64,000 nucleotides of DNA from a virus, in the IMG/VR virus record IMGVR_UViG_3300038425_000083, positions 12,069-76,068 of that record; one strand, given 5' to 3'. Made by a program: the position numbers and the translations under genes. The notes beneath the pieces are model-generated. The model saw only the letters and a program-made list of their open reading frames with translations, did not search any database and was not told the origin of the DNA. Of the stretch, positions 28,337 through 50,646 are shown piece by piece. Within the stretch, counting starts at the first letter, position 1. Every line of letters begins with the position of its first letter.

Positions 28337-28476
28337 GGTTGATTATAAAATGTTGTTCACCTAAATGTTCAAAATGAAGCCAAAAAAGCAGAAAAGTTCC
28401 GGAATTCCGGAAGTGATTCTTCATTTTGAAGCCAAAAGCAGAATAAATTCTCAAATTGAGGATGGAAATCTCAAAA

Positions 28477-32445: not shown

Positions 32446-32632
32446 TCCCCAAAGTTTAGAACATATGATGGCTTACAAACATCTTCAGGAGAAAGGATTT
32501 TGGCCTGAGGGTTTTATTCCGGAGAGAATGGAATTTGAACCTGCCTGGCAAATCATTCTTCAAGGAAAGATGGCCGAAGAGTATATGAAGCAGTTAGAGA
32601 AAGGATGGGATTGTGAATGGATGGAGGGGTAA
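32417..32632 (+). CDS. hypothetical protein
   Basis: ORF in packed gene run. Confidence 0.55.
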   Translation: MNMKISDFFNPQSLEHMMAYKHLQEKGFWPEGFIPERMEFEPAWQIILQGKMAEEYMKQLEKGWDCEWMEG

Positions 32633-33034: not shown

Positions 33035-33190
33035 TCTTATAAAGATTCTTAAGCTTGAATGTTTGATATGCGGTACTGTCTTTGACTTGGAGACCCCGAC
33101 AGGTTTTATAAGATGGCAGTATTGTCCTGCATGTAAGAACTCCGGGAAGTTTAAGCAACTTGGAATGACAATAAAAGAGGAGAAGAAATA

Positions 33191-34513: not shown

Positions 34514-35253
34514 TGATAGTCTATGTTGATGACCGATTAATGAAAGCTGACCGTAGCCATGTTGCCTTTGAAAGAACTGTTAAAGGCAAGCAACAACATA
34601 TCAAACAAAAGGGTTCGAAGAAAGAAGAAGAGACTGAGCAAAAAAATAAAAAGCCTAAAGGCGAGCAGGCCAGAACCGAAGCCAAAGGGATAGTCGATAG
34701 TATAGGAAATACTATGAAAATATTTAAACAGTCTGAAGGGATGTGCGGGCCGACGAGTGTTAGCATGGCATTGACAAAATTCAGAAAAAATTATTCTCCG
34801 GAACAAATAGCCAAGATTGCCCACTCTACGGCTTCGGAAGGAACAGATAGCGGTGAGTTGGTAAAGGCAATTAAATCTGTTGGTATAGATGTTGTTGAAT
34901 ATAAAAATTTAAGTAGGTTACATGCCTTGCATGTTCTTAGGAATCATACCAAGAATGGAGAGCCTTGTATCGTATCTTGGCTTAAAACAAAACTCGTATC
35001 TTCAAGTGAGTCCAGTATAAAGGGGTCAGAAGGGATGAAGCCTGGTTTTGAAGAAGTCCCGGACATGAAGACGATATCGAAAAAGCAAGCAGAAGAAGCA
35101 GAGCATTATTCAGTTGTTAAAAGTGTAGACGATAAGTATGTTCATATGCTTGATCCGTTGGAAGACAAAGAACAATCACTTCCAATTAAATATTTTTTGG
35201 ATAGATGGTGGGATTCAGAGGATAAGAGATGGTTCCTGGTCTTAACAAAATAG
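34513..35253 (+). CDS. tagged C39-like cysteine peptidase
   Basis: LMK|A plus hairpin tag; QSEGMCGP, EGT, HYSVV, MLDP. Confidence 0.8.
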   Translation: MIVYVDDRLMKADRSHVAFERTVKGKQQHIKQKGSKKEEETEQKNKKPKGEQARTEAKGIVDSIGNTMKIFKQSEGMCGPTSVSMALTKFRKNYSPEQIAKIAHSTASEGTDSGELVKAIKSVGIDVVEYKNLSRLHALHVLRNHTKNGEPCIVSWLKTKLVSSSESSIKGSEGMKPGFEEVPDMKTISKKQAEEAEHYSVVKSVDDKYVHMLDPLEDKEQSLPIKYFLDRWWDSEDKRWFLVLTK

Positions 35254-35263
35254 GAGGAGAAAC

Positions 35264-35671
35264 ATGGAAGAAAGAGCTTGGAGGAACATAAGTATCGGAA
35301 AGACAGATCGCCCTGTGTTATGTCCTGATCTTATTCGTCAGAGATGTGTCATCGAGTTTTTGACTGATTTGGACATGAATGACTTTGATTTCATGGAGAA
35401 ACACCTAACGAAGTTTCTCCATGATTTGTCAAAAACCTTGGATATGAGGATATTCATGGGGCCGATTATAGGGAACGACAGAAACGAACTTACTGGCGAG
35501 AATGGTCCCTCAGCACTTGTAGGATGGACTACTTCGGGTTGCCAGATTCACTCTTGGCCTTTCAGAAAGTTTGTATCGATTGATATCTATAGCTGCAAAG
35601 CGTACGATGTATTAAAGGCATTCAAACTTGTGACTAAATATTTTAATCCTGTTATTGTGGACATTCGTTAA
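35264..35671 (+). CDS. S-adenosylmethionine decarboxylase-like (pyruvoyl) proenzyme
   Basis: GPSALVGWTT-SGCQIHSWP..FVSIDIYSCK; T-S rather than E-S at the self-cleavage position. Confidence 0.8.
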   Translation: MEERAWRNISIGKTDRPVLCPDLIRQRCVIEFLTDLDMNDFDFMEKHLTKFLHDLSKTLDMRIFMGPIIGNDRNELTGENGPSALVGWTTSGCQIHSWPFRKFVSIDIYSCKAYDVLKAFKLVTKYFNPVIVDIR

Positions 35672-36486
35672 TGAGGATGCAAGTCTATTTAAGAAAGTTG
35701 TTTAAAGTCGTTAGTGAACGGAGGCTTTGGCTTACTGTTCTTGGGAAAACAGGACGCCAGTATATCTGGATTGTTCGATCAACTTTAGAGTTTGATCATG
35801 ACAGGCCAAACTTTTTAATTGCTGCAGGTTTTCATGGAGAGGAGATTGCCGGGCCTTTTGCGATTCTGAAATGGCTTGAAACTGCAACTCCAAATCAACT
35901 TGCAAAGGCCAATTTTACATTTTTACCAGTTATGAACCCGATCGGATTTAACAGAGGTTCTCGGTATGCTCGAGCAGGAGAGAAAACAAATGCTGGCTTC
36001 TATCACGTAGAAGAAAGCAAAGATGTTCTTTCAACAGAGGGTCAGATTCTTATGGAGAATGTTGACTTTCTGATTAAGGCTGCCAGGGATGGCTTTCTTA
36101 GTTTGCATGAGGATGAGACTGTAGATAAGTTCTATGTTTATGATTATGTAGCAGAGGAGCGAGCCAAGCCAAGTTCTTTTGCAAGAGCTATGAGAGATGA
36201 GGAGAAGAAGTTTTTTGATGTCATTGCGGATAATACCCCTGTCAATGAGGAAGGCGATCCGAATGCAGTTGTTTGGGATGGGATTGTTTATCATTTGTGC
36301 GATGGTAGTTTTGAAGACATGTTAATGCATAACGGAATACCAAGAGCTATAACTACAGAGACCCCATCACTTGGCATCGGATTGGAAAAAAGAGTTGAAG
36401 CTGGGGTTGCGTTAATAACAAAATTTGTTAATTTATCTGTTAGACGTTCCAGGGTTATGTCAAAATATAGGAGAGATAAAGAATAA
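35671..36486 (+). CDS. M14 family peptidase/deacylase (succinylglutamate desuccinylase-like)
   Basis: AGFHGEE, PVMNPIG..R, LSLHED, TTETP. Confidence 0.85.
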   Translation: MRMQVYLRKLFKVVSERRLWLTVLGKTGRQYIWIVRSTLEFDHDRPNFLIAAGFHGEEIAGPFAILKWLETATPNQLAKANFTFLPVMNPIGFNRGSRYARAGEKTNAGFYHVEESKDVLSTEGQILMENVDFLIKAARDGFLSLHEDETVDKFYVYDYVAEERAKPSSFARAMRDEEKKFFDVIADNTPVNEEGDPNAVVWDGIVYHLCDGSFEDMLMHNGIPRAITTETPSLGIGLEKRVEAGVALITKFVNLSVRRSRVMSKYRRDKE

Positions 36487-37245
36487 ATGGGAAGAGAAGT
36501 TAAATGTTTTATGTTAGAACCGACAGATCGAGTTAGAAGGCATCTTCGAAGATTTGTATCTTTTAAAGTCTCGCAAGCTGACCGAGAATGTAAAGTAGCT
36601 GAACATGGCTATCATCAGGCACGACAAATGATTGAAGATGCACCAGCTCAGATGACCAGAAGAATTATTCAAACAGAGAACGGAATAAAAGAAGTAGGCG
36701 ATCCTATCTATATTGAATGCGAACAGCCAGGAAGATTTAGAGTTTTAGAATTTGTTGGAATATCGGGATATACAGGGCATCAGGGCCTCTCTGGTGTTTG
36801 CAATGCTGATGAAACCGATCACCAAGTTTATTCCGGAAAGGAAGATCCGAGATGGCCATGGCACTGCCCATGTGGTTATAAGTTTACTCCTGAAGATGAA
36901 TGGCAGGTGTTTACGAATCTTATCTACAAGCGGAAGGATACCGGCGAGTTGATGACATTGCAAGAGTCTCCTCCCGGGGCTATGTGGGATGCCGATTGGA
37001 TGCATGACCTAATCGAGTATTACGGTAGTGATCATAGAGGAGAGAGATTGGACGATGGCATGATTCTGGTCGTTAAAACTCCTGCTGGGGAATGGCTGAT
37101 TGATGGGCCGTCGAGCGACAAACCTTCTAAACGATGGACAAGAAGTGGAGTTCCTCCACTTATAACGGTTCAAGGTTCTATTGGAATTGGAAGTCCGCAG
37201 AAATATCATGGGATGCTTATTGAAGGAGTTTTGAGAGATGTATAA
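36487..37245 (+). CDS. conserved phage-type hypothetical protein
   Basis: PPGAMWDADW, WLIDG, WTRSGVPPLITV..SI..YHG.L..GVL. Confidence 0.65.
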   Translation: MGREVKCFMLEPTDRVRRHLRRFVSFKVSQADRECKVAEHGYHQARQMIEDAPAQMTRRIIQTENGIKEVGDPIYIECEQPGRFRVLEFVGISGYTGHQGLSGVCNADETDHQVYSGKEDPRWPWHCPCGYKFTPEDEWQVFTNLIYKRKDTGELMTLQESPPGAMWDADWMHDLIEYYGSDHRGERLDDGMILVVKTPAGEWLIDGPSSDKPSKRWTRSGVPPLITVQGSIGIGSPQKYHGMLIEGVLRDV

Positions 37246-37771
37246 GTTTGTTATTTTAGAAAAATCTAAGGACTTTCCAGGAGGCTATTACTATATAGAC
37301 CTTGACAAGACGCTCGCATATCATAAAACCGAATGGGGGGCAGATGTCATAGGTAAGCCACTTCCTAAGATGTTGAAAAAACTTAAGGGCTTATTGCGGA
37401 ATGGAAAGAAGATAAAGATTTTCACTGCAAGAGCTACCGATAAAAAAGCTGTTAAAGAAATTCAAGCTTGGTTGAAGGAAAATAAATTACCCCGCTTTGA
37501 AGTTACCAATATAAAGGGAACTGATGTCATTGAGATATGGGATGATAGAGCAAGACAAGTTGATCCTAATACTGGAGAGTTTACAAAAGCGCAGGGTGGA
37601 TACGGGGGCTCTCGAGTTCCTTTGATTGGATTAGGCCTACCAGGTTCTGGACAGTTTCGTTCTCATAAATTGGGGAGATCAGAACGGAAGAGGTTAGCTA
37701 AAAGAAAACGTATAGAGCGAAAGAAAGAACGGAAGGAAGATATAGAAGCATATGGCGAAGCTCTTGACTAA
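37238..37771 (+). CDS. tagged HAD-superfamily phosphatase
   Basis: FVILEK|S leader; IDLDKTL (DxD), IFTAR, WDDRA; basic C-terminal unit after FTK|A. Confidence 0.8.
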   Translation: MYKFVILEKSKDFPGGYYYIDLDKTLAYHKTEWGADVIGKPLPKMLKKLKGLLRNGKKIKIFTARATDKKAVKEIQAWLKENKLPRFEVTNIKGTDVIEIWDDRARQVDPNTGEFTKAQGGYGGSRVPLIGLGLPGSGQFRSHKLGRSERKRLAKRKRIERKKERKEDIEAYGEALD

Positions 37772-37919
37772 TTATGTCATTTTGAAAAAGGCTGAGAAGA
37801 AGTTACCAGATCATAACTCTATGCAATTTCACAAGGAACTTTTTGAAGTAGAAGATGATCTGATGGATTACTTAGACACATTGGAGAAAGAACCAAAGCA
37901 TGAGGCTCGTAATTCTTAA
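37752..37919 (+). CDS. small tagged protein (YVILKK|A), not in ORF track
   Basis: MAKLLTNYVILKKAEKKLPDHNSMQFHKELFEVEDDLMDYLDTLEKEPKHEARNS. Confidence 0.6.
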   Translation: MAKLLTNYVILKKAEKKLPDHNSMQFHKELFEVEDDLMDYLDTLEKEPKHEARNS

Positions 37920-39732
37920 ATCAAGCGAAAGTGCACGTAGGGCATGGGAAACAAGAAGATATGGAGGTTCTCATACAACCCTATCGACCGAACGCTCTGA
38001 ATATTACAAAGAAAGAGAAAAGCTTGACAAAGAGGTTTTTCTTAATGAGCTTCCAAAGTTTAGGGAAGAACTTAACATAAAAAAGTTTTATACAAAATTT
38101 CCTAAAGTGTCTTCTCAGATCGAAGAGAAGTTTCGAACTATTACTGAAAGTTACAGAAGCGGTGGTTTAGATGACTTGGGTGCTAAACCAGAAGAAGTAA
38201 GAGAGAAGATGCAAGTTGTTAAAGATGAAATAAAATCGTGGGGCGACAAACTTCAATTTAATGGAAGAGGTAGACTGTCTATTAAAGTCGGCACCATACC
38301 AAAAAGAGGAAGACATAAAACCTATGGTATGTACTACCCTGGGATTCAAGTTTTAGAAGTGGATCAAAGATACAAAAATTCTATAGCTCATGAGTATGCT
38401 CATTTTATTTTTGATGACAATGGATGGGAAGATAGCTACAAAGATAGTTTAGTTCATGGGAATTTCGATGAGGCTTATGAATTTGGGTTTACGAATTTTT
38501 TAGAGAAATTTTCTCAAGATATGGAATTTGTTCCCTCTGACATAAGTTCTGCAGGCACAGCTGCTACAATTAAAAATCAAGGGAAAGCACTTATAGAACT
38601 TTTCGCTCAGCTAAAAGATTTTTATAAACTTCCAGATGTTATGGAAAAATTTAAGAAAAGTCAAGACCCTCCTATCATTTGGGCGTCTACTGAGGCTTTA
38701 TCGGATAAGCAAAAGCTTACTCGAGAACGGATTGAACGGACGTTCGCCAGAGGAGTTTATAAAAGAGTTCAGAATCGTATGAAGTATCTATTTCGTCCAA
38801 CCGAAATATTTGCAAGAGCTGTTGGGTCATATGTATCAGAGGATTTTATTTCTAACCCGGTTGAAAAAGATGATAGATACAAGGCAATTGTAAAAGCCTG
38901 GGGTGATAAGTATCTGAAGACTGGTATTGTGAAGAGTTATGTGATTCTTGAAAAAGCCCAGATACAGATTAAGCCTTCTTTTAGGCATACGGCTTCTGGT
39001 AAGATAGTTCCTGTCAAAGGATTTACAGTTGAAAGGGAAACTTTTGAGCATGCCGTTCTTGCCGATGAATTTTTCAAATCACTTAAGGAGATTGAAGGAT
39101 CAGATTGGCAATTTGAACCCGGCGAAGTTTTTGATATGGGTGATAAAATAAATGTTGAAGTTAGATTGTGGGACCGAAGTAAGAATATCACAGAACTTGA
39201 ACCTTATAGAGCAAAGGGAACTTCTTTAACACGCTATAAAAAGATGTCTGGATACATTGGTCGTTTTGAATTGAATTTTCTTAAGAATGGGAAAGATGTG
39301 TATCTATCATCTTTATTTTTAAAAGACGAGTGGCAAGGTAAAGGTGTTGGCAATGATTTAATGAAGCGAGCTATAGACTTTGGAATTTCTAAAGGCTTCA
39401 AAAGTTTTGAACTCTTTGCAAATGGGGATGTCGGAACTTATGCGTGGGCTATCCAAGGATGGGATTTTGTTAAGAAAACAGAGAAACAAGATTTGCTTGG
39501 AGACTTTTGTAAATGGCTAAAGAAAAAATATAATGTAGAGAAAAATCCTCTGGATTTTCCTCATGCTTGGAATATAGCAGCGTTTAGAATAGGAGATGAG
39601 AAAGTCGGAAAAAAATTTATGACTGGAGATGGTCATAATGATTTCTGGGAAGGCGCTCTTAACGTTGGTAGCAAAGGCTACAAATTGTTTAAGGAATATC
39701 ATAGATTAAGGTTACTAAGGAAAATGAGTTAG
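37900..39732 (+). CDS. two-unit tagged polyprotein: zincin (LPD1/MPTase-like) and GNAT acetyltransferase
   Basis: LVILK|SSESARRAWETRRYGGSH; AHEYAH..PTEIFARA..WGDKYLKTGIVK|SYVILEK|A; QGKGVG acetyl-CoA motif. Confidence 0.85.
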   Translation: MRLVILKSSESARRAWETRRYGGSHTTLSTERSEYYKEREKLDKEVFLNELPKFREELNIKKFYTKFPKVSSQIEEKFRTITESYRSGGLDDLGAKPEEVREKMQVVKDEIKSWGDKLQFNGRGRLSIKVGTIPKRGRHKTYGMYYPGIQVLEVDQRYKNSIAHEYAHFIFDDNGWEDSYKDSLVHGNFDEAYEFGFTNFLEKFSQDMEFVPSDISSAGTAATIKNQGKALIELFAQLKDFYKLPDVMEKFKKSQDPPIIWASTEALSDKQKLTRERIERTFARGVYKRVQNRMKYLFRPTEIFARAVGSYVSEDFISNPVEKDDRYKAIVKAWGDKYLKTGIVKSYVILEKAQIQIKPSFRHTASGKIVPVKGFTVERETFEHAVLADEFFKSLKEIEGSDWQFEPGEVFDMGDKINVEVRLWDRSKNITELEPYRAKGTSLTRYKKMSGYIGRFELNFLKNGKDVYLSSLFLKDEWQGKGVGNDLMKRAIDFGISKGFKSFELFANGDVGTYAWAIQGWDFVKKTEKQDLLGDFCKWLKKKYNVEKNPLDFPHAWNIAAFRIGDEKVGKKFMTGDGHNDFWEGALNVGSKGYKLFKEYHRLRLLRKMS

Positions 39733-39740
39733 GAGATAAA

Positions 39741-40754
39741 ATGAAAGTTCTGTTTATTTGCAAAGTAAGAGAATATTCTGAAGACTACTCGGATTGGGGT
39801 TATTCTGATTGGGCATCTGGATTGCTTATTTCTGCAAAGCTTCTTTCAGATATGCTTAACAAAATAGGAATTTCTTCCAAGGTAGTTCGAGTTGTTGATA
39901 ATAATGATATAGATAGGGAAGTTCATAAATACAGACCTAATTATGTTATCATTGAAGCTCTATGGGTTGTTCCGGAAAAGTTTCATATCTTGAGACGGCT
40001 TCACCCACATGTAAAATGGGTAGTTAGAATCCATAGCGAGATTCCCTTTTTAGCAAACGAAGGAATAGCTATGAAGTGGCTTTATGGATACAGAGATTTG
40101 GGTTTTGTTCACATAGGTGTGAACAGTAAAAGAATAGGAGAAGCTCTTAAAGGTTTAGGATTTGATGTTCTGATGCTTCCTAACTATTACCCAGTTGATC
40201 CGAGAAGAGCAAGGCTTTCAAGAAGAGGGTCAGAGTTGAGAGTGGGATGCTTCGGAGCAATTCGACCTCTTAAAAATCAGCTTATGCAGGCTATAGCTGC
40301 GATTAGATGTGCAGAAGAGTTGAAATTACATCTTGAATTTCATATTAACCACAATAGAGTAGAGAACAGAGGAATAGAAGTTCTTAAAAACATAAGAGAT
40401 TTATTTGCCAATAATATTAACTGCGAATTGGTGGAGCATTCTTGGATGAGTCACCATAAATTTATTGAGCTACTTAAAACAATGGACATTGGAATGAATG
40501 TGAGTTTAAGTGAGACATATAGCGTTATTACCGCAGACATGGTTTCTCATAATGTACCTATAGTCGTATCACATGAAGTAGCATGGGCACATACTTTAAG
40601 CAAGGCAAATCCAAACGATTTAGATGATATAGTAAAAAAGATGAAAATAGCTTTTCATAATGAAGAACTTATTTACGACAATAAATCATTGCTTAGATTG
40701 AACGGAAGATTATCTAAACAAGAATGGAAGAGATTTTTGTTACAAAAAATTTAA
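39741..40754 (+). CDS. GT-B (GT4-like) glycosyltransferase
   Basis: GCFGAIRPLKN, MDIGMNVSLSETY..ADMV..VPIV. Confidence 0.75.
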   Translation: MKVLFICKVREYSEDYSDWGYSDWASGLLISAKLLSDMLNKIGISSKVVRVVDNNDIDREVHKYRPNYVIIEALWVVPEKFHILRRLHPHVKWVVRIHSEIPFLANEGIAMKWLYGYRDLGFVHIGVNSKRIGEALKGLGFDVLMLPNYYPVDPRRARLSRRGSELRVGCFGAIRPLKNQLMQAIAAIRCAEELKLHLEFHINHNRVENRGIEVLKNIRDLFANNINCELVEHSWMSHHKFIELLKTMDIGMNVSLSETYSVITADMVSHNVPIVVSHEVAWAHTLSKANPNDLDDIVKKMKIAFHNEELIYDNKSLLRLNGRLSKQEWKRFLLQKI

Positions 40755-40765
40755 GGAGGAATGTT

Positions 40766-41587
40766 ATGAGTATATTTGAGACGATTAAAGAAGATGTTGT
40801 TGGATTATTTGAAAAGAAAGTCCCAAAGAAATTTGGAGGATACGGTTGGATTAAAGATGCTTCCGATCCGAGAGACTTCAAGTTTGTATCTCCTATAAAG
40901 ACTCTCCCAAAATCTGTTAACATGAGACCTTATATGCCGCCGATTTTGGATCAGGGAAACTTAGGAAGTTGCACAGCTAATGCAATAGCAAATGATTTTT
41001 ATGCCGAGATGTTGAGACAGCTTTCGTTAAAGACTATCAACCACGCCTGGCTTCCGTCAAGACTTCTCATTTATTTCAATGAGAGAACTTTAGAAGGAAC
41101 CGTTAAACAAGACTCCGGAGCCAGCGTACGTGATGGATTTAAAACTATCAACACGCTGGGTGTTTGCCCGGAAACAGAGTGGCCTTATATTATTAGCAAC
41201 TTTGCTGTAAAACCTCCGGCAAAGTGTTACATAGATGCATTAAGAGATAAGACAGTTCAGTATTTGAGTATACCTCAGGTTCTCACTCAAATGAAGGGAT
41301 GCCTTGCTTCTGGATATCCATTTGTTTTTGGATTTAATGTCTATGAAAGTTTCGAGAGCGATGAAGTGGCCAAGACAGGTATTGTACCAATGCCAGTAAA
41401 GGGAGAAGCACTCTTAGGTGGGCACTGTGTTTTGGCTTGTGGCTATGATGATTATTATCAAAGGTTTATGGTTATGAACAGCTGGGGTTCAGGCTGGGGT
41501 ATTAAGGGATATTTTACAATCCCTTATGCTTACCTGACAAGTGCAAATTTGGCGTCAGATTTTTGGACAATACGATTGGTATCGTAA
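40766..41587 (+). CDS. papain-like C1A cysteine peptidase
   Basis: DQGNLGSCTANA, GGHCV, NSWGSGWG..GYF. Confidence 0.92.
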   Translation: MSIFETIKEDVVGLFEKKVPKKFGGYGWIKDASDPRDFKFVSPIKTLPKSVNMRPYMPPILDQGNLGSCTANAIANDFYAEMLRQLSLKTINHAWLPSRLLIYFNERTLEGTVKQDSGASVRDGFKTINTLGVCPETEWPYIISNFAVKPPAKCYIDALRDKTVQYLSIPQVLTQMKGCLASGYPFVFGFNVYESFESDEVAKTGIVPMPVKGEALLGGHCVLACGYDDYYQRFMVMNSWGSGWGIKGYFTIPYAYLTSANLASDFWTIRLVS

Positions 41588-41716
41588 GAGGTTTATGGAA
41601 CTTATTACATGTCCTATTTGTGGTAATCAGGTAATGTGGATAATTTGGGATGACTATGAAAATAGGATTCCTGCTATGTGCATTGACTGTTATGAACTTG
41701 AAAGGATGATCAATCT

Positions 41717-41881
41717 ATGAAAAAGGACAATCATAAATTTGTTATTCTAAAGAAGAGCGTATCGTGCCCCATTTGTGGTAAAGCTAACGCTATACAGATG
41801 GGAACCCGGTATAAAAGGGATAATCTTTGGGCCAGAAGATTCCGTTGCTCTAAGGGTCACGTCTTTGAAGAAATTCAATAG
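41717..41881 (+). CDS. small tagged Zn-ribbon protein (FVILKK|S), not in ORF track
   Basis: MKKDNHKFVILKKSVSCPICG..RFRCSKGH; AAGGA RBS. Confidence 0.6.
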   Translation: MKKDNHKFVILKKSVSCPICGKANAIQMGTRYKRDNLWARRFRCSKGHVFEEIQ

Positions 41882-41890
41882 GAGATTCCT

Positions 41891-42076
41891 ATGAAGATCA
41901 AAAGATGTTTGAGATGCGGGAGATCTGTTCTTTTACCGAAGGAATTTTTTACTTGCAAAGAATGTCGGAAAGAAAACAATGAAGTGTTAGACTTGGCTGC
42001 GAGATATGTTTCACATCACATGGAAGTTATTCGTGAGTTAAGAAAGAGAGGAGCGTGGGAAGGAGCATGGACATAG
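41891..42076 (+). CDS. Zn-ribbon protein
   Basis: CLRCG..CKEC; AGGAG RBS. Confidence 0.55.
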   Translation: MKIKRCLRCGRSVLLPKEFFTCKECRKENNEVLDLAARYVSHHMEVIRELRKRGAWEGAWT

Positions 42077-42323
42077 AAATTGGAAAACCAAAACCTGAGA
42101 AACCTTGGAAGTGGGCAGAAACAGAAGAAGGAATCCGAATTCCAATTCCTTCGAGTAAGCAGATAAAACCTTCAAAATACAGACCGGATAGAGGGAAGAG
42201 GATTCTTAATAGGCACGATCCTCACTGCTTTATTGAAAAGTCTAAGATGGATAACAATCCCTGCAACAACTTGCCCAAATGCAAGAGTTGTATGTGGAGA
42301 TTTAATTGTAAGAAGGAGTAGAT

Positions 42324-42674
42324 ATGAAAAAAAGAATTTTGAGAATGTTAATTATTGGTCTTATTGCAACCCTTGTTATATGTGTATGGCAAATTACAGC
42401 TCAGCAAACAGGGCCACAAGCGGGAGCACAAACACGAGTAATCTTTCTGTGTGGGCAAACAAGTCAACAAGTTATGTCTCAGATGGTTCCAATGATTCCG
42501 AAGATTACAAAAGATACTTATGGGTTTATCTACTTGAGCTATAACTTTGATGGGGTGATTTTTATCTTTCAATTTTACAATGATAAATTGGCAGGCATAC
42601 TGATTGGTGCCCCGGCCGTACCTCTTGAGCAGGAGAATAAAGCCCCGCAGGAGAAAAGATACAGGGGGAAATAA
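42324..42674 (+). CDS. exported or membrane-anchored protein
   Basis: signal-like N-terminus; AAGGAG RBS. Confidence 0.6.
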   Translation: MKKRILRMLIIGLIATLVICVWQITAQQTGPQAGAQTRVIFLCGQTSQQVMSQMVPMIPKITKDTYGFIYLSYNFDGVIFIFQFYNDKLAGILIGAPAVPLEQENKAPQEKRYRGK

Positions 42675-42676
42675 CG

Positions 42677-43015
42677 ATGAAAAAGAAACCAAAAAGTTTT
42701 TTAACCTTTGAAAGTTTTAGGGATAAGATAACTGTTATTTCAAGCATCTTGCTTATATTTGGTATGCTATTTGCAGCATGGATGTTTCTCGATAATAGAT
42801 ATGCCCAAAAGAAAGTTGAACAGAAACTGGATTATGTAAAATATAGCCTGCAGTTTCAAATGAACAACGATAAGATTTCGACATTGATGTCTTTGTACCC
42901 AAAAATAGAAACTGCTGATCCAGTCGTAAAGCAGCAACTTCAAACTTATATGGATACAAAGTTAGAACTCGTCCGTAAGATGGAAGTTTTAGAAAAGTTG
43001 GGGATAGGTCTATAA
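42677..43015 (+). CDS. single-TM coiled-coil protein
   Basis: TM segment then LDNRYA and coiled coil; TAATG-coupled to MuF. Confidence 0.6.
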   Translation: MKKKPKSFLTFESFRDKITVISSILLIFGMLFAAWMFLDNRYAQKKVEQKLDYVKYSLQFQMNNDKISTLMSLYPKIETADPVVKQQLQTYMDTKLELVRKMEVLEKLGIGL

Positions 43016-46000
43016 TGCCAAGGGTAAGGTTTGAACCTTTAAAGATAACAACTCTCTACGAAGAGAAAGTTGCTCAAAGCGTTAAGGATCGCTATAAGAG
43101 TCACATTAATAGAGAATCCCTTCGTCTCGTAAGTAACATCACGGATGACATGAGGGATAGGATTGCTGGATTAATGCACGAGGGTATTGACGAAGGTAGG
43201 TCAGTTAGTGCAACTGCCAGCACACTTCTTAAGACTGGTCTGGACAAAGGAGTTTTTAGATCGGCAAGACGAAGAGCCTATCTCATATCAAGAACTGAAT
43301 TACATAGAGCAAGACAACAAGGAGCTTTTGATCTTTATAGAGCAAATCATATTGATCTTGTTAAGTGGATTGCCATAGGAGATGAAAGAACATGCGATAC
43401 GTGTGCACCCCGAAACAACCATGTTTATAGGCTTAGCGAGATAGAGGGAGACTTACCGCCTATTCATCCAAGATGTAGGTGTAGAGTTGTGCCTTCAGAT
43501 TTTCAACTCGAGATAAGTGTTAGACGTGATCGAAGAGGAAAGATAATGGAAACAAGAATTTCTCCAACTCCTCAGAACTACAAATACTATGTGAGTCTTG
43601 ACAGGAAGCCAAGAAGACGAGTTAAGAAGTCACTCGAGAAGGCTGTTTCAGTCAGAGCATTTACAAGGTACGTTCCAGGCAGAGGGTTTCAAAGATATAA
43701 ACAGTTTCAAAGGGATGTAGCTGTTATTGATAAACCTGTTCCAAGGGATTTTTCATATGAGATAGCTAACTCTGGGGAAGATGTAGCAAATAAGATTGAG
43801 GAACGAAGAGAAGGAAAAGTTCGAGCTACTTATGCCGTTAATGCGGTTAGGGCTTGGAACATGGAAGCAAAAAATAAGTATCCTAACACTAATTATCTCG
43901 GTGACGTTGGCGTTAGAGAATGCTTACAAAATAGTTTGGATGCGGTCACAGAATCTTTAGAAAAAGGAGAGATAAAGAGGGGCAAGATCGAAATAGAACT
44001 TACTCCTCATAAAGAAAAGTACTCTGTCAAAGATAATGGAATAGGAATGTCCGATACAGACATTCGTGACAAGTTCCTTGCTCTTTACGGAACAGGGAAA
44101 GATATCAAAGGTAGATTCGGAGGATTTGGAATCGCTAAGGCTGTTATCTTGGCTCCTTCTGAAAGTTCACATTGGCAACTCAAAACAAGAGATAATTTCT
44201 TTGATGACAAGATGGCCTCTGCAAATGATCAGATTAAAGCCATTCCAAAAATTCAAGGAACACAAATTGATGTTTGGGCAGGGGAGGATATTGTTAGCGA
44301 AGATGCCAAGAAATATGTGGAGACGACTGAAGTTCCTAAAAATATAGGTATAAGATTTAAGTGGGCACTTGATGATTGGGAAACTTTAAAGAATCCTTTT
44401 CTGAAATTAAAGAGTGAAGTAAGTCATACTACGGCAAAGGGTTCTGAAATAACAATGTCTTTCTTTCCAAGACCGCCATCGGAATACAGAAATCATATGA
44501 TTTTGAGACTTGTTGACAAAAAGACCGGGGCTAAATTAACTCAGGCCATAAACCCTATATTTGGAGATTTTAAAGGGGCTTTAGTTGTTGATATAGAAAC
44601 AAGTGCAACCCCGGGCTCCGGTGGATATCCTCTTACCGATTCGAGAATGGGATTGAAGTGGGGAGAAGTTCAAGATTTTGTTAACACAGAAATAAGTCAA
44701 AGAACAAGAGAAAAGAAATCAGCTGAGCGAGTTGGTCAACAAGAGAAGTGGCTGGACTTACCGGAAGTTCCTGGCTGGAAAGATACTCTCGAGAGAATTA
44801 AAACAGATACAGGTTATGCATATCTTAAAGACACAATAGATAAAATTTGGCAAAAAGATTTTGTGTCGCAACATTTAAAAGGTATAGTATCAACAGATAT
44901 AGGAGAACAACCTTTTACCTCTCTTGAAAATATAAAGATACTTAGGGATGTTGGCTTTAAAGGTTCGGATGGCGGGACTGTTGCTCAAGCAAAGTTGATG
45001 CTGGCATTTGAGTCTTTAGCTCAGATGTATTCACAAACTTTGCAAAAAGCTGGTATGCATTGTCCGTTGTTTGGATTTCATGCTCTGTTGTCTAAAGCTA
45101 CATCGACCGGAGTGAGACTTGCACATTTTAGCAGACAAGAACATACTTTAGGTTTGGATATTAAATCTTTTCCTAAGAGTGCTTTCGCAAGTCCGGTTAG
45201 TCTTGCCTTAGAAATGGTCAACACTATTCAGCATGAGTTCACTCATAATTGGAGGAGGGAACACGACGAAGGTTTCACTTCTCAACTTGGGCAAATACAA
45301 ACGGTAACAGCGCCCTTATTTAATAGGGCTTTAGAGGTTGCAGGAGCGCTTCTCGGCAAGGATACCAGAATAACTATAGATACACCGCAAGGAATAGAAA
45401 AAATCAAGAGAAGCCATATTTGGACAATAGGAGAAAAACCAAAACAGCCTGAATGGAGAGCAGAACTTTTTCAGTTGTACAAGGAGATAGGGGGAAAGTC
45501 AGGAGCGACTGCAGTTTACAAGATTGCTGAAAAATATAACATTCCAGAGAAACGTGTAAGAATGGTTCTTGCCGGATACAAAGCGGCACAAAGCCGAAAG
45601 GAGAAGAAAGATGTCACTAAATCCATTACAGAAAGCAGCGTTGGATTCCGAGGCCCCGAGAGAACAAGTCATCCAAGGTTTGTTATCCAACTTGATAAAC
45701 GATTGCCTGATGAAAGCAGGGATCGATCCCAATGGGCCGATAGCAGGATCGATGCGGAAGCTGGGACAGGACGTTTGGGACTTGAGGGACGCTCTGGAAG
45801 AAGAGGGTTATTGGTAATAGAGAAAGCCAGATCTCACAAGTATCTCAGAAAAATACCGAGAGGATCGGGAAGATATGAATATATCTATCAGAGACCAGAT
45901 GTAGGTTTTCACGGAACCACTTCTAAGTTTTTAGAAACTATTCTTAAAGAAGGTTTAAGAAGTTCAAAAGATACCGGAGTTGCGTTGTATAGTGGAGAAT

Positions 46001-49000
46001 CACAATTTGGCCCAAAAGCTAAGAGATATGGAGTTTATTTCGCAAAAACTCCGGAAAGAGCTTTTGGTATTGCTGAAGTGGCAACAAAAAAATTTGGTGG
46101 GAAGCCTGTAATTTTTATTGCTAAAGTTGATCCTAAAAAAGCAGAATCGGATGAAGATTTTGCAGTTGTCTTGGGTGATCTCTTTCGTGATATTTCTCGA
46201 GACAAACCTCCTCTTTTAACGGGTAATGAAATTAGGCAGCGTCTCAAGGATTATAAATTAAGCTATGGGGAGACCTATTATATACCGCAAGATACGCAAT
46301 ATAGATTGAATACGTTATCTGACGGAAAATTGGAACGTCTGTACGATAATTGGCGGAAGGGAGGTTCTAAAGCGATAGATGAGGAGCTCACATCCAAAGA
46401 TAGTTGGAAAATATTTGGGAGTGCTGCATTTCCTGGTGATAAGCCAGAAGATATCAGAGCTGCTATTTTTTGGGATTGGGCTGAACATAAATATACAAGA
46501 ATAGGATCACCTTTTGAAAAGAAATTAGATAAAGCTTTAAGAAGGTTAAACTTAAGAGAAGTAACTAAACTTCCAGGGGCCCACGTTGTTGAAAATCCGG
46601 CCTTTATAAAAGCTTTAGAAGAGTTTGGATTCTTTGCGACATCTACCGGACTTTTGAAATCAGTTATGGGAGAAGATTTAAAGAAAGCCAGAAGCTATGT
46701 AAGATTCAGACATGGGAAGTATGAGCATGTTAAAGGATGGTCTGGAAAACCAAGATTATTTGATTTATCATCAGAGGACAAAATTCACCGTTATCTTCTT
46801 GACGCATCTTCCCCTGAAATAGAAAAAGCACTTCAAGTAGTTCAGGAAATACATGCTGTCGGTGGGCAAACTTTATTTATTGGAGGTTGCGTTAGAGATG
46901 CTTTGCTTGGCAAGAAGAGTAAAGATATCGATCTTGAAGTTTACAATGTGAAACCGGAAGAAGTTCGAGCAATTCTTGACCGAGCCGGAAAAGTAGATCA
47001 GGTAGGAAAGAGTTTTGGAGTTTTTAAACTCTCTTTTCCCGGAATGGAGGCTATTGATGTAGCCATTCCAAGAAGGGAAAGTAAAACTGGCAAAGGACAT
47101 AAAGGATTTATGGTAGATCATGATCCTTCAATGACTTTCAAGGAAGCTGCGGGACGTAGAGATTTAACTATCAATGCTTTGGCATACAATCCTATAGAGG
47201 ACAAGATAATTGATGAATATGGAGGCCTTCAGGACATTAAGGACAAGATATTAAGAGCTACAAACCCAGAAACCTTTGGAGAAGATTCATTAAGAGTATT
47301 GCGAGTTATGAGATTCGCTGCCCAGTTAGAATTCTCTCCGGATTTTAATCTTGCATGGCTTTGCAGGCAGATCGATCTGACCGATCTTCCAAAGGAGAGA
47401 ATTTTTGGGGAAGTTGCTGGAATGCTTCTTAAAGCAAAGAGACCAAGTATAGGATTAAGATTGATTCACATACTTGGAATTAATAAGATTCTCCCAGAGC
47501 TCGATGAACTTAAAGGAACAGAACAGGATGAGAAATGGCATCCTGAAGGGGATGTATGGGAGCACACATTATTGGCGGTAGACGAAGCCGCCAAGATGAA
47601 GAAGCAACTCGCAAATAATCAAGATAGACTGGTTTATATGCTTGGCGTCCTATGCCATGACATGGGAAAGCCAGAAACAACAGATGTTAATGAGGAGGGG
47701 AGAACAATCAGTCATGGGCATGACGAGATGGGAGCGAAGGTAGCTCAGGATTTTCTTGGAAGATTAACTGACGAGACAGATATTTTAGAAAGAGTTGAAG
47801 GTTTGGTAAGACATCACATGAGACCTACCTTCTTCTTTCATGACAAGGTTCCGGATTCAGCTATTAGAAGACTTGCAAAGAAAGTCGATATTCCAATGCT
47901 CCTTATGGTATCGGCTGCCGATAAATCCGGTAGAGGGGATAAAGACATTGATCTAAGTGCCGAGAGATGGATGATGAGAAAGTTCAAGAATCTAAAACTC
48001 GCACATCCTGAAACTCTCGAGCCGAAAGTCATGGGAAGACATCTCATTCCATTAGGCATTAAACCTGGCCCGGAGATGGGAAGAATTCTAGACAAGATTT
48101 ACAATGCTCAGCTGGAAGGTAAGTTTGAAACCACAGATGCTGGTTTGGAATATGCTAATCAGCAAGGATGGTTAAAGACAGAAGAAGATACTGTCATTAA
48201 AGCTGTTCCCGTTAAGAAACTTATAACAAGTAGAGGGAAAACTTTTCTCCATACTTACTATGAAAATAGAAGTGGCTTAGGCCCCGGATTTTTTGCAGGA
48301 GCCGAGCCTTTGGTTGTAAATAAAATGTCTTTCAAGCAAAGTGAGGATCAGAAAAGATGGGGAGAAGAAGTTGTTCTTGTTGATGTTTCTAAATTTGATG
48401 CTGAATGGAGTAAAGACGAAGGATTTTATATTTCTTCTTCTGGAAAGAATGAGATTAGCAATAGGAGAGAAAAATTCCAAGAGTTTCTCAAAACTGGAAA
48501 GCCTATTATAATGCCTTCGGTCTCTGTAAGAGATATCGGATCGAGGGGTCTTATAGGTTTTACAAATGGAAGACATAGATTTGCAGTTCTCAGAGATATG
48601 GGCTTTACAGAAATTCCTGTATCTGTGGATGCGAAATCTGCGAAGATGGCAAAGGAACTCTTTAAAGCCCCAAGTTTAAAGGAGAAACTGGAAGCGCAAA
48701 ATTACTGGTGGAAAACCGTTGCCGGAGGAATCGAAAGCAAGTATGAGGGGGTTAAAATAGTTTACGCAGGAAAGAAGACATCTGAAGGGTTTACCCATAC
48801 TTATGCAGATGAGCAGTTCCAAGATGCAATAGATATGATTCCGGAAGAGCATAGGAAGCTTATTGATTCAGTGATTCTTGAGCCTGGGAGTGTATTGGGT
48901 GAAGATGGCAAAGCTGAATTTGGTCGTGTTTTTGAAGGAACAAGTTCTATTCACATATACCGTGGGGTTCAACTTCATGAGTATGGAACCAGTTTTGAAG

Positions 49001-49707
49001 AACAGTTTGCCCACGAAGTGGGACATTTGGTAGCACGAAAAGTGTTTGGAAGCATAGAAGCTGAGAAGTGGGGCGATGTTATTAAAGGAGAGAATCCTGT
49101 TTCTCATAGAGGTAGAGAAAATGCTGCAGAAGATTTTGCAGAAACTTATTCTCTTTATCTTAATGATGAATTAAATAAGGATGATTATCCACAGAGATAT
49201 AAAGCAATAAAGAATATAGTAGATAGGGCAAGGAAGCCCAGAAAAGTTTCAAAATTAAAATGGGAAGTCAAAGATTTGAAAGATGAGTTTGAAGAGAAGA
49301 CTCCTTTGCTTCATACTACTTATGACAGATTAGCTGCAGGTGGGAAAGCTAAATATACTTCGAAGCCAAGTCCTGAAGCTGAAGCCGCTTTGAAAAAATT
49401 ATTTGGGAAGGGTATGGTGATAGATATGGTAAAATCCAGAAAGAAGATAGTTGAAATGAAAAAATCCAGACTCGAGAATAAGTTTGTGCCTCACAAGATA
49501 GATGGAAAAGTTTCATGGGTTAAAGTTAAACATGGAGGCATGCTTGTTAAGAGTGCTAAACTTATCCAAGTCGGACAAGAGATTTTAGCCAAGTCTGGTT
49601 TAGCTACAATAACTGCGGTCGGGAAAGATGGAGTTACGGCAAGAACATCTAAAGGAGATAAAATACTTCTCCTTATGAAAGATGTTCTACCTTATGTAAG
49701 AGGATAA
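43015..49707 (+). CDS. 2230-aa MuF-headed polyvalent polyprotein: MuF, GHKL ATPase plus zincin, ART-like domain, CCA-adding/HD enzyme, ParB-like domain, zincin, SH3-like domain
   Basis: MuF ISRTE..W..GDERTC..PPIHPRCRC; ECLQNSLDA/DNGIGM/GGFG; HEFTH; FHGTT..GL..GVYFA; GGCVRD/DIDLE/RRDLTINA/EDSLR/HPEGDV.EHT/HDMGK; NGRHR; HEVGH..EDFAE. Confidence 0.9.
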   Translation: MPRVRFEPLKITTLYEEKVAQSVKDRYKSHINRESLRLVSNITDDMRDRIAGLMHEGIDEGRSVSATASTLLKTGLDKGVFRSARRRAYLISRTELHRARQQGAFDLYRANHIDLVKWIAIGDERTCDTCAPRNNHVYRLSEIEGDLPPIHPRCRCRVVPSDFQLEISVRRDRRGKIMETRISPTPQNYKYYVSLDRKPRRRVKKSLEKAVSVRAFTRYVPGRGFQRYKQFQRDVAVIDKPVPRDFSYEIANSGEDVANKIEERREGKVRATYAVNAVRAWNMEAKNKYPNTNYLGDVGVRECLQNSLDAVTESLEKGEIKRGKIEIELTPHKEKYSVKDNGIGMSDTDIRDKFLALYGTGKDIKGRFGGFGIAKAVILAPSESSHWQLKTRDNFFDDKMASANDQIKAIPKIQGTQIDVWAGEDIVSEDAKKYVETTEVPKNIGIRFKWALDDWETLKNPFLKLKSEVSHTTAKGSEITMSFFPRPPSEYRNHMILRLVDKKTGAKLTQAINPIFGDFKGALVVDIETSATPGSGGYPLTDSRMGLKWGEVQDFVNTEISQRTREKKSAERVGQQEKWLDLPEVPGWKDTLERIKTDTGYAYLKDTIDKIWQKDFVSQHLKGIVSTDIGEQPFTSLENIKILRDVGFKGSDGGTVAQAKLMLAFESLAQMYSQTLQKAGMHCPLFGFHALLSKATSTGVRLAHFSRQEHTLGLDIKSFPKSAFASPVSLALEMVNTIQHEFTHNWRREHDEGFTSQLGQIQTVTAPLFNRALEVAGALLGKDTRITIDTPQGIEKIKRSHIWTIGEKPKQPEWRAELFQLYKEIGGKSGATAVYKIAEKYNIPEKRVRMVLAGYKAAQSRKEKKDVTKSITESSVGFRGPERTSHPRFVIQLDKRLPDESRDRSQWADSRIDAEAGTGRLGLEGRSGRRGLLVIEKARSHKYLRKIPRGSGRYEYIYQRPDVGFHGTTSKFLETILKEGLRSSKDTGVALYSGESQFGPKAKRYGVYFAKTPERAFGIAEVATKKFGGKPVIFIAKVDPKKAESDEDFAVVLGDLFRDISRDKPPLLTGNEIRQRLKDYKLSYGETYYIPQDTQYRLNTLSDGKLERLYDNWRKGGSKAIDEELTSKDSWKIFGSAAFPGDKPEDIRAAIFWDWAEHKYTRIGSPFEKKLDKALRRLNLREVTKLPGAHVVENPAFIKALEEFGFFATSTGLLKSVMGEDLKKARSYVRFRHGKYEHVKGWSGKPRLFDLSSEDKIHRYLLDASSPEIEKALQVVQEIHAVGGQTLFIGGCVRDALLGKKSKDIDLEVYNVKPEEVRAILDRAGKVDQVGKSFGVFKLSFPGMEAIDVAIPRRESKTGKGHKGFMVDHDPSMTFKEAAGRRDLTINALAYNPIEDKIIDEYGGLQDIKDKILRATNPETFGEDSLRVLRVMRFAAQLEFSPDFNLAWLCRQIDLTDLPKERIFGEVAGMLLKAKRPSIGLRLIHILGINKILPELDELKGTEQDEKWHPEGDVWEHTLLAVDEAAKMKKQLANNQDRLVYMLGVLCHDMGKPETTDVNEEGRTISHGHDEMGAKVAQDFLGRLTDETDILERVEGLVRHHMRPTFFFHDKVPDSAIRRLAKKVDIPMLLMVSAADKSGRGDKDIDLSAERWMMRKFKNLKLAHPETLEPKVMGRHLIPLGIKPGPEMGRILDKIYNAQLEGKFETTDAGLEYANQQGWLKTEEDTVIKAVPVKKLITSRGKTFLHTYYENRSGLGPGFFAGAEPLVVNKMSFKQSEDQKRWGEEVVLVDVSKFDAEWSKDEGFYISSSGKNEISNRREKFQEFLKTGKPIIMPSVSVRDIGSRGLIGFTNGRHRFAVLRDMGFTEIPVSVDAKSAKMAKELFKAPSLKEKLEAQNYWWKTVAGGIESKYEGVKIVYAGKKTSEGFTHTYADEQFQDAIDMIPEEHRKLIDSVILEPGSVLGEDGKAEFGRVFEGTSSIHIYRGVQLHEYGTSFEEQFAHEVGHLVARKVFGSIEAEKWGDVIKGENPVSHRGRENAAEDFAETYSLYLNDELNKDDYPQRYKAIKNIVDRARKPRKVSKLKWEVKDLKDEFEEKTPLLHTTYDRLAAGGKAKYTSKPSPEAEAALKKLFGKGMVIDMVKSRKKIVEMKKSRLENKFVPHKIDGKVSWVKVKHGGMLVKSAKLIQVGQEILAKSGLATITAVGKDGVTARTSKGDKILLLMKDVLPYVRG

Positions 49708-49981: not shown

Positions 49982-50314
49982 GTGCTTATGAAAACAGAAA
50001 TATTGAGAGGACGTAGATACAATATCTATCCCGATCGGCCTAAGAAGTGCCCGTTTTGTGGATATAGGATAGTATGGTCGAACGCAGATAGATGGAAATG
50101 TGGAAAATGCTATAAGAGCTGGGGCAAGAAAACTTTTCCAAGACGCAAAGATTTAGGAGATCGTCCAAAGTGCTTATGCGGGGCTTCAAATCCTATATCG
50201 GAAGGAGTAAACTGGTTATGTACTGAATGCGGACGGCATTGGCTGAAGATTTATAGAATAGAAAAACAACTTACCCAAAGGGAGGTTTTAAGCGCTCAAG
50301 TTTTTGAAATATGA
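49982..50314 (+). CDS. double Zn-ribbon protein
   Basis: CPFCG..CGKC and CLCG..CTECG. Confidence 0.6.
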   Translation: MLMKTEILRGRRYNIYPDRPKKCPFCGYRIVWSNADRWKCGKCYKSWGKKTFPRRKDLGDRPKCLCGASNPISEGVNWLCTECGRHWLKIYRIEKQLTQREVLSAQVFEI

Positions 50315-50646
50315 TTATCTACAAAGCTAAGAAGAAGTTATCCAAAGCTTTAAAAGGAAAGCCTAAATCTGAGGAGATGAAGAGAAAGATATCTGACTTT
50401 TTTAAGGGTAAATCTCTTTCGGAAGAGTTAAAGAAAAAGATGAGTGAAGCTCATATGGGCAAGCCTTGGAGTGAATTCAGAAAAGTTAGTTACTATCGTC
50501 ATTCAGAAGCGACAAAGAAAAAGTTATCCGATGCCATTAAAGGAAAATGTTGTTCTGAAGGAGCAAAGAGAAAAGTGTCCGAATTTTGGGCAAAAAGGAG
50601 AAGAACCCAATGCGAAAATCGAAATCTGACAGTGGTTTGGAAATGA
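50311..50646 (+). CDS. NUMOD3-repeat DNA-binding protein (homing-endonuclease remnant)
   Basis: repeated GK..SEE.K.K(I/M/L)S; no nuclease domain visible. Confidence 0.75.
   Translation: MIIYKAKKKLSKALKGKPKSEEMKRKISDFFKGKSLSEELKKKMSEAHMGKPWSEFRKVSYYRHSEATKKKLSDAIKGKCCSEGAKRKVSEFWAKRRRTQCENRNLTVVWK

Follow-up and report, generated by a model that had tools for sequence, protein, structure and literature searches.

A CCA-adding-type tRNA nucleotidyltransferase as predicted cargo of a MuF-anchored polyvalent head protein in an uncultured phage

One giant open reading frame (ORF; 43015-49707, plus strand) was analysed in a 64,000-nucleotide window, meaning the whole stretch of DNA under study (bases 12069-76068 of the 76,068-base linear IMG/VR record IMGVR_UViG_3300038425_000083), from a phage that is uncultured and known from peat and wetland metagenomes. 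Positions are those of the window unless stated otherwise. The ORF encodes a 2230-aa polyvalent head protein (P0001), anchored by a MuF domain and composed of at least seven units in one open frame. One of these units, hereafter CCA-HD (46687-48201, residues 1225-1729, 57 kDa), is by its sequence features a complete class II tRNA nucleotidyltransferase with an HD phosphohydrolase of the E. coli Cca type. The best explanation for its presence, to which we give about even chances, is that this cassette is cut free of the head protein, packed in the virion and delivered for tRNA repair. The N-terminal MuF domain would carry the polyprotein into the procapsid, an entry expected from its homology to SPP1 gp7 and Mu F; the head maturation protease would then cut the junctions and release the 57-kDa CCA-HD and the other units inside the head, and the freed pieces would be ejected alongside the DNA when the next cell is infected. 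There, the HD domain would remove 2',3'-cyclic, 3'- or 2'-phosphates from tRNA ends and the transferase would rebuild C74-C75-A76, so that damaged tRNAs could be charged before any phage gene is translated. That a ready-made enzyme would be useful while translation is blocked is logical.

The CCA-HD unit comprises a hairpin header with an extension of about 45 aa, a nucleotidyltransferase (NTase) head and neck, an HD body and a tail. Its head was matched by Pfam PolyA_pol (82.5 bits against a cut-off of 23; residues 1288-1414 of P0001), its body by the HD domain of Pfam (38.7 bits against 22; residues 1514-1605) and by HDIG of NCBIfam (32.7 against 27.6), and its tail by Pfam tRNA_NucTran2_2 (residues 1659-1711); the tRNA nucleotidyltransferase family PHROG 2244 aligned over residues 1286-1695 with an E value of 2e-72. 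Motif A (GGCVRD; residues 1290-1295, nt 46882-46899) is followed by the metal carboxylates DID (residues 1304-1306, nt 46921-46938), by motif B (RRDLTINA; 47152-47178) and by motif D, the nucleotide-selecting pocket (EDSLRVLR; 47281-47304); motifs C and E (DEYGGLQDI, PKERIFGE) are present as well, and the HD motif lies at 47650-47673. The HD metal-binding residues H1509, H1548-D1549, H1569, H1601 and D1636 are unchanged across the relatives described below, and an alignment of 12 sequences with 48-69% identity shows no substitution at the NTase residues (GG.VRD, DxD, RRD, and D and R within ED..R) or at those of the HD domain (H..HD..H..H..D). With these residues in place, the enzyme looks catalytically intact. 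An earlier note on this DNA had already described a complete class II CCA enzyme with an HD domain between two K|A tags (the bar marks the presumed cut); Pfam, PHROG and the motifs bear this out, with the borders now refined to 46687-48201.

The flexible loop that had been claimed for the enzyme is also there at full length, as A76 addition requires: between motifs A and B it is, compared by length only, two residues longer than in the CCA-adding enzyme 6ibp, and 3wfo has a four-residue gap at this loop. The best PDB chain was 3wfo, which we take to be the Aquifex CC-adding enzyme and whose alignment spans 428 residues, taking in the HD body and the tail. Like the E. coli Cca type and 3wfo, the unit has motifs A-E, the flexible loop, the HD motif set and a C-terminal tail; unlike the Cca type, it is embedded in a head protein, carries the additional N-terminal hairpin and extension, and scores far below the equivalog cut-offs. 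The top NCBIfam family was NF008137 (multifunctional CCA addition/repair; 180 bits against a cut-off of 451), followed by TIGR02692 (176 against 439), and the poly(A) polymerase family PcnB reached 114 bits against 306. This ranking favours CCA over PcnB, though every equivalog cut-off is missed.

The conserved borders of the unit are the junctions K1224|A1225 (nt 46687) and K1729|A1730 (nt 48202). In a search limited to proteins of 1226-3903 residues, about 13 close relatives were found that are 49-69% identical over CCA-HD, nearly all of them with Phage_Mu_F. In most of these the homology begins exactly at the Ala after Lys1224; an upstream [LIV]xK|A site with a hairpin was present in 13 of 13 close sequences, and the downstream site in 10 of 11 readable ones. 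Segment-wise BLAST showed that what the family has in common is limited to MuF, CCA-HD and the C-terminal 90 residues and that the other cassettes are swapped, with the GHKL, first zincin and ART units of P0001 (described below) absent from all relatives. CCA-HD is thus the one enzyme cassette kept by every relative, and the relatives variably carry ART-PolyVal, a 2H/Acb1-like phosphoesterase, RadC-JAB, PBECR2 or inteins. The 2H phosphoesterase often stands beside CCA-HD and scores equally as anti-CBASS Acb1. In two close relatives (P0010 and P0013), CCA-HD itself is split by an intein/LAGLIDADG insertion of about 300 residues (Pfam Intein_splicing, LAGLIDADG_3).

Viral contigs were also searched for CCA enzymes by an alignment-based scan, a single-protein scan having given nothing. 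Among the 65 IMG/VR CCA ORFs that could be delimited, 61 are free genes of less than 800 aa and four lie inside giant ORFs, and these other ORFs are without the leader or hairpin of the P0001 lineage. In a FastTree phylogeny the 13 CCA-HD units of the MuF family form one clade (SH-like support 100), and the other embedded CCA copies need at least six separate placements. As judged from this tree and the alignments, CCA-HD is a conserved payload of one MuF lineage that has repeatedly been captured elsewhere. In three distant giant proteins (P0024, P0026 and P0032), an AAA_33 P-loop kinase is inserted in the PolyA_pol head, which consequently matches in two pieces.

The site at the borders of CCA-HD recurs in the proteins of the region as [LIMVF]-x-K|[S/A], often as VILEK|S or LVIEK|A, and the header after it has one of two forms, SSEGAKKAWETRR.GGSH or a basic RPY.R.R.GK.EHV.GY-type hairpin; in P0001, each junction is followed by a short basic hairpin header. 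Relative to shuffles of each protein, [LIMVF]xK[SA] is in excess in the MuF protein (21 versus 7.3 expected), the scaffold (9 versus 1.4) and the protease (8 versus 2.4), and in the genes beyond the capsid protein (56.5-64 kb) it was counted 4 times versus 7 expected. An N-terminal site (residues 6-30) was found in 25 of 117 ORFs versus 8.9 +/- 2.8 in shuffles, a number that 0 of 1000 shuffles reached, and the strict form with three aliphatic residues occurred 7 times versus 0.3 expected. The tags described for CCA-HD therefore stand as a motif beyond chance, but the left one that the earlier note had named, EIEK|A at about 46830 (residue 1271), is a second, non-conserved site and not the conserved junction.

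The SSEGAKKAW header was found 13 times in 10 proteins, always a few residues from a Lys and mostly directly after it, and header peptide strings had no match in a literature search. The proteins bearing it are encoded at 413-784, 1908-2753, 3345-6368, 11124-14636 and 14851-15399 and, further on, at 20789-21832, 24302-25120, 28456-29946, 37900-39732 and 52133-53680. The header form K|[S/T]SEGAKKAWETRR.GGSH occurs in up to three copies within one protein. In a small ORF outside the head module (9158-9598), ..DLYK|A is followed by HKYFSKKPIGGGKYRYKYVY, the same basic hairpin header.

The K|S/A motif recurs in the structural proteins of the head. The major capsid protein (55005-56417, plus strand; PHROG 752, E 9e-100), which is 42-47% identical to Herelleviridae-type Bacillus phage capsid proteins, has ELNK|ALAAGYD after residue 26, the predicted propeptide boundary. 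At the equivalent place, the 'major capsid protein precursor' of the cultured herellevirus SP10 reads NLNK|ALEAGYG, and a scaffold-like protein of SP10 is dense in [LIV]xK|S sites. In the related phage L003, for which genomic context was read, the capsid protein is 75% identical and both the boundary (QLNK|ALAAGYD) and the leaders are kept. The scaffolding protein here (54212-54907, plus strand; PHROG 15087) is dense in the K|S/A motif, and the head maturation protease (52133-53680, plus strand; PHROG 1028, E 4.5e-39) carries K|S/A sites and the header motif, including PILAK|SSEGAKKAWITRR. Given the position of the motif at the capsid propeptide boundary and its many copies in the scaffold, the head maturation protease is proposed as the cutter: the simplest reading of these sequences is that K|S/A sites are its substrates, and the protein at 52133-53680 is the candidate enzyme. 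A paper on an SPO1-like Bacillus phage offered no cleavage-site data. The protease also repeats the N-terminus of the mature capsid protein (..SSGGISGSALR..; 52868-52942 versus 55086-55160). The SP10 protease (L083 2036-2779) likewise copies its capsid N-terminus (..MEAGYATTPETQSDGGALRRES..), which makes this mimicry a family trait.

The giant protein opens with a minor head domain of the MuF/SPP1 gp7 type (43015-43641, plus strand; residues 1-209), which ends in SLEK|A. Phage_Mu_F of Pfam scored 47.2 bits over residues 50-158, and PHROG minor head and head morphogenesis families matched too; in nine relatives the domain is 49-61% identical, and homology stops at about residues 197-209. A stretch with a GHKL-type ATPase, a zincin-like unit and an S/R/G-rich linker follows (43642-45825, plus strand) and ends in LVIEK|A. 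The ATPase was matched by Pfam HATPase_c_3 (31.6 bits, residues 300-378), weakly by an HSP90-family model of NCBIfam, and has DNGIGM at 44032-44049; the zincin-like unit has HEFTH at 45232-45246 and matched WLM weakly, with 18 bits. Next come the ART-fold unit (45826-46686) and CCA-HD. Behind these is a probable ParB/Srx-like unit (48202-48666, plus strand; ends ELFK|A), a tentative assignment resting on TNGRHRF at 48562-48582, seen by eye, on a weak Pfam PFIN match of 15 bits and on atlas leads to PFIN and ParB_N at about 0.90; it is shared with P0016 at 51% identity. A second zincin-like unit (48667-49434, plus strand; HEVGH at 49012-49026, ends DMVK|S) matched Pfam ATLF weakly (18.5 bits) and is partly common to P0007 and P0008. 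Both zincin-like matches are far below the cut-offs. The protein closes with a conserved basic C-terminal domain of about 90 aa (49435-49704, plus strand), which no family matched and which is 35-53% identical at the C-terminus of 10 relatives. ART-PolyVal, MPTase-PolyVal and ddrB-ParB of Pfam had no match to P0001, even in segment scans at E up to 5.

Assembly error does not explain the fused frame: the ART/CCA junction, the CCA/ParB-like junction and the next one are crossed, with no indels or joints, by contigs from four other peat or wetland runs. An identical protein is encoded on a second contig (P0003), and identical DNA was found in at least 11 metagenome runs from peat or wetland.

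The ART-fold unit (45826-46686, plus strand; residues 938-1224), which the earlier note had recognised as an H-G-T/Y-type unit upstream of the enzyme and whose borders are now refined, consists of a basic hairpin header and a domain with H965-G-T, Y1008 and D1046-E-D. In the family alignment, H29, G30, T31, Y71 and D109-E110-D111 are at least 90% conserved. Pfam PARP was matched by 20 of 41 homologues, and Tpt1 by the query alone. A structure model of medium confidence (pLDDT 67) matched the Tpt1 NAD lobe (Foldseek E 0.014), PARP1 (0.024) and DarT1 (0.16) over about 80-93 columns, the probability of the fold matches to Tpt1, PARP1/2/10 and DarT1 being 0.9-1.0; atlas leads were PARP, Arr and Tox-ART-HYD1, all below 0.9, and a PDB sequence search gave nothing useful. 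The suggestion that the unit is a Tpt1/KptA enzyme did not survive. The N-terminal RNA-binding lobe of Tpt1, with its catalytic Arg-His-Arg, was not found in the unit, where the HGT strand comes 28 residues after the junction and is preceded in the model by a hairpin only; the Tpt1 reading was rejected on account of this missing lobe. Moreover, Tpt1 profiles stayed below their cut-offs (PF01885, 16.8 versus 26 bits over 38 residues; NF002014, 17.2 versus 239), and half of the homologues match PARP. By sequence and model, the unit looks PARP-like, of the H-Y-[E/D] branch of the superfamily, and it is more likely an independent NAD-using effector than a part of tRNA repair. T4 Alt is of a different, R-S-E type, so that with the conserved H-Y-D/E motifs here it offers a functional analogy only. 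A free 177-aa gene of L003, with the leader MNYVILEK|S and a hairpin, specifies an ART of this HGT..ILK.GL type.

A small HAD phosphatase (P0002; 37238-37771, plus strand) is tagged separately. Its residues 1-9 form the leader MYKFVILEK|S, its core (residues 10-117) ends in FTK|A, and a disordered linker and a basic C-terminal helix follow in what is a single-domain protein; the tagged HAD that had been reported at 37238 is thus borne out in all motifs, fold and leader. The motif residues D21, D23, T25, T63, K93, D102 and D103 are invariant or nearly so in 46 homologues, and the model (pLDDT 82, leader and linker disordered) confirms a capless HAD fold. The leader is common to the four closest homologues (P0036, P0037, P0039 and P0040; 55-76% identical), and distant homologues are without it and begin directly at the HAD core. 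Fold matches (VIA) were led by 2obb (Z 10.0), an uncharacterised Bacteroides protein, T4 Pnkp 1ltq (9.9), Pnkp1 4xrp (9.7) and 5uj0 (9.6; rmsd 2.5 over 99 residues), with the next at 8.4, so that 2obb and the two 3'-phosphatase folds (T4 Pnkp, Pnkp1) exceed generic HADs by about 1.2 Z units. The proposal that the protein is a 3'-phosphatase is hence upheld as far as a Pnkp-like fold goes (Z 9.6-9.9), but no sequence-level match was found in PDB, Pfam or NCBIfam, nor a kinase or ligase to accompany it. Cultured phages gave six weak matches, of which four are hypothetical proteins, one a NUDIX hydrolase and one a phosphoheptose isomerase. Modest support from the model thus exists for an RNA-end phosphatase that may heal 3'-phosphate ends, against which weigh the likeness of capless HADs to one another, the lack of a sequence-level match and the fusion of homologues elsewhere to MazG, DUF3310 and InPase, proteins of nucleotide metabolism. 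From its leader, the HAD is probably a separate cargo using the same loading route.

The record has a GC content of 0.39, carries all genes on one strand and is 65% complete by CheckV estimate; megablast of the 36-50 kb region gave no near match among cultured phages. Its head module opens with a portal protein (25945-27615, plus strand; Pfam Phage_portal, 80.6 bits) and closes with the protease, the scaffold and the major capsid protein, and the interval of about 25 kb from portal to protease holds enzyme genes and the giant ORF. A run of enzymes between portal and MuF (31146-36486) starts with a KamA-like radical SAM lysine aminomutase and also holds a leader-bearing 440-aa protein without assignment, a leader-bearing C39 peptidase, an AdoMetDC-like protein and an M14/AstE-like carboxypeptidase, and L003 has AdoMetDC-like and M14 genes as well. 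Leader-tagged proteins with zincin motifs are encoded at 28456-29946 and 37900-39732 (YHEFGHE and AHEYAHF), and in the second of them a GNAT acetyltransferase comes after an internal YVILEK|A junction. A peptidase of the papain family (C1; 40724-41587) is encoded upstream of the MuF gene. Just downstream of it are a NUMOD3 protein of homing-endonuclease type (50311-50646) and a calcineurin-like metallophosphoesterase (50586-51494) that is 70% identical in L003. A 1170-aa protein (11124-14636) combines three SSEGAKKAW headers with a topoisomerase IB core of the eukaryote/poxvirus type (Pfam Topoisom_I, E 4.9e-21), a family that is also found in P0019, a distant CCA-carrying giant protein.

Polyvalent proteins, known from phages and conjugative elements and including a MuF-anchored subset, form a described class for which packaging and injection have been predicted (Iyer, Burroughs, Anand, de Souza and Aravind 2017; PMC5512222). 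Like them, P0001 is a long polypeptide encoded among virion genes that joins MuF to unrelated enzyme domains such as an ART-fold unit and putative zincin-like and ParB-like units; it agrees with the definition of the class in having MuF, GHKL, an ART fold, CCA-HD and two HExxH units between the portal and capsid genes. It differs in that the ART-PolyVal and MPTase-PolyVal models of Pfam do not match and in that its junctions bear the motif of head maturation protease substrates, whereas processing in the described proteins is attributed to embedded zincins (PMC5512222). The main text of that paper has no CCA and no GHKL, its mentions of 'tRNA' and 'nucleotidyltransferase' concerning other things, and a literature search found no work linking polyvalent proteins to tRNA nucleotidyltransferase, the two being treated separately where both occur. 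CCA-HD is a new cargo within this known class. Stand-alone phage tRNA nucleotidyltransferases (PHROG 2244; in jumbo phages, PMC7824862) belong to the same enzyme family and have been interpreted as RNA repair, but these are free genes of 400-500 aa, at most 42% identical and outside the MuF clade in the tree.

The use of a short leader that ends in a protease motif is known from other phages. Capsid-targeting leaders of T4 (10 residues with hydrophobic-x-Glu sites) are cut by gp21 and their cargo is delivered (PMC9026906), and ejection proteins of phiKZ and SPN3US are cut by their prohead protease (PMC9026906, PMC10052503). As with the T4 internal proteins and Alt and with the phiKZ and SPN3US cargo, which travel in the head and are ejected as predicted here, the leader motif is also found in the capsid protein, scaffold and protease. 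The likeness is one of analogy and not of homology, the motif being hydrophobic-x-Lys|Ser/Ala in place of the hydrophobic-x-Glu| of T4; the capsid protein and protease are Herelleviridae-like, and the cargo is in addition chained as cassettes behind MuF. Regarding function, a comparison is with T4 Pnkp/Rnl1, the phage answer to tRNA attack by the PrrC anticodon nuclease, with the HAD fold near the Pnkp 3'-phosphatase. In T4 these enzymes are synthesised after infection and are not known to be carried in the particle. Their kinase and ligase mend anticodon-loop breaks; neither was found in the 76-kb record, and the chemistry here would be rebuilding of the 3' end.

The earlier note had gone further than delivery of one enzyme, proposing a kit in which CCA-HD, a Tpt1-like ART and a 3'-phosphatase HAD would arrive together and treat the same damaged tRNAs one after another. 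In favour of such a kit are the phosphatase domains of T4 Pnkp and Pnkp1 among the closest folds of the HAD, the weak Tpt1 profile and fold matches at the HGT..ILKEGL region of the ART, the 2H phosphoesterase that often adjoins CCA-HD in relatives, and the AAA_33 kinase inside the CCA head domain of distant giant proteins. We nevertheless think it improbable. The ART is without the RNA-binding lobe and its family matches PARP, the absence of GHKL, zincin and ART from all relatives means that no partnership is conserved, the fusions of HAD homologues point to nucleotides, the 2H domains score equally as Acb1, and no ligase was found in the record. With no link among HAD, ART and CCA, and neither ligase nor kinase in the record, the coordinated three-enzyme kit is not supported, and from the tags and relatives the three are best seen as separate cargo items with a common loading route, not as a pathway. 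A plainer alternative, unlikely in our view, is that there is no delivery at all: the polyprotein or CCA-HD would act late in the producing cell, keeping tRNAs charged while virions are made, or would merely be co-expressed with head genes, the MuF fusion being gene organisation only. It is true that phage CCA genes mostly stand alone (61 of 65 IMG/VR loci, plus H1 and H2) and that those of jumbo phages are interpreted as ordinary RNA-repair genes (PMC7824862). However, an in-frame fusion with cut-site-like junctions is kept across about 13 relatives, CCA was captured independently into other giant multidomain proteins, and the grammar of leaders and junctions is common to capsid, scaffold and protease. 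The record has only two tRNA genes, Ile-TAT and Gln-TTG (record 2715-2789 and 3539-3615, outside the window), and both encode the 3' CCA, so the scan for phage tRNAs lacking CCA that had been suggested came out negative. This argues against maturation of the phage's own tRNAs, a role that was rejected, and fits repair.

It seems very unlikely that the enzyme serves offence or signalling, with the transferase tailing host RNAs for decay (poly(A) or CCACCA-type) or the HD domain destroying nucleotide signals. It is true that the fold is common to PcnB-type poly(A) polymerases, with a score of 114 bits, that relatives have Acb1-like 2H domains, which target cyclic nucleotides, and that Jamet et al. 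reportedly took MuF-fused C-terminal domains as toxins in 2017; yet the CCA families outscore PcnB, the head-neck-HD-tail order with its tRNA-binding tail matches cellular CCA- or CC-adding enzymes (3wfo, 428 residues), and both motif D (EDxxR) and the flexible loop are retained. A further doubt concerns the cutter, because the two embedded zincin-like peptidases might cut the junctions, or these might stay uncut, with the prohead protease uninvolved. HEFTH and HEVGH units are indeed present, and autoprocessing by MPTase domains was predicted by Iyer et al. (PMC5512222), but the same motif stands at the SP10 capsid boundary and in its scaffold with no zincin in the SP10 head-gene stretch examined, no zincin match was seen in several relatives that have these junctions, and the matches in P0001 are far below cut-offs. 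We regard zincin cutting, too, as an unlikely course.

Several points weigh against delivery of CCA-HD for tRNA repair, the explanation preferred here. Packaging, cleavage, injection and the activities are all inferred from sequence, the phage being uncultured. Every NCBIfam equivalog cut-off is missed (180 versus 451 bits), and sequence is no safe guide for separating class II enzymes that add CCA, CC or A from one another and from poly(A) polymerases. CCA-HD itself contains two motif matches (EIEK|A at residue 1271 and MLLK|A at residue 1473), so some matches must go uncut or the enzyme would be destroyed. MuF-type proteins such as SPP1 gp7 are few per virion, which would leave only a handful of enzyme molecules to face a very large tRNA pool. 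RNA ligase, RtcB and a P-loop kinase (AAA_33) were not found in the 76-kb record, which is 65% complete, and we know of no tRNA-end-damaging defence in the host of this phage.

The phage answers known for tRNA-targeting defences, T4 Pnkp/Rnl1 and phage tRNAs among them, are genes whose expression follows entry. A particle-borne repair enzyme, if confirmed, would act before any phage translation, and it would thereby solve the problem of a cell whose tRNAs are disabled at once and which cannot translate a phage repair gene; it would also change the expected effect of abortive-infection tRNases and tRNA-end-modifying toxins on such phages. The repeated capture of CCA-HD by giant head or polyvalent proteins (the MuF clade and at least six placements) suggests, on sequence grounds, a general selective advantage, which would be new to the polyvalent-protein literature. 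More tentatively, and with rather less confidence than we give to delivery itself, this may be the first case of virion-delivered RNA repair, in which a general cut-here grammar, hydrophobic-x-Lys|Ser/Ala with one of two header peptides behind it, loads dozens of enzymes into the capsid, some as free proteins with leaders and others as exchangeable cassettes behind MuF, and the CCA-HD cassette is the one never lost. The junction grammar also yields a concrete, testable rule for the packaged contents of this phage group, and a ready natural means of putting foreign enzymes into capsids.

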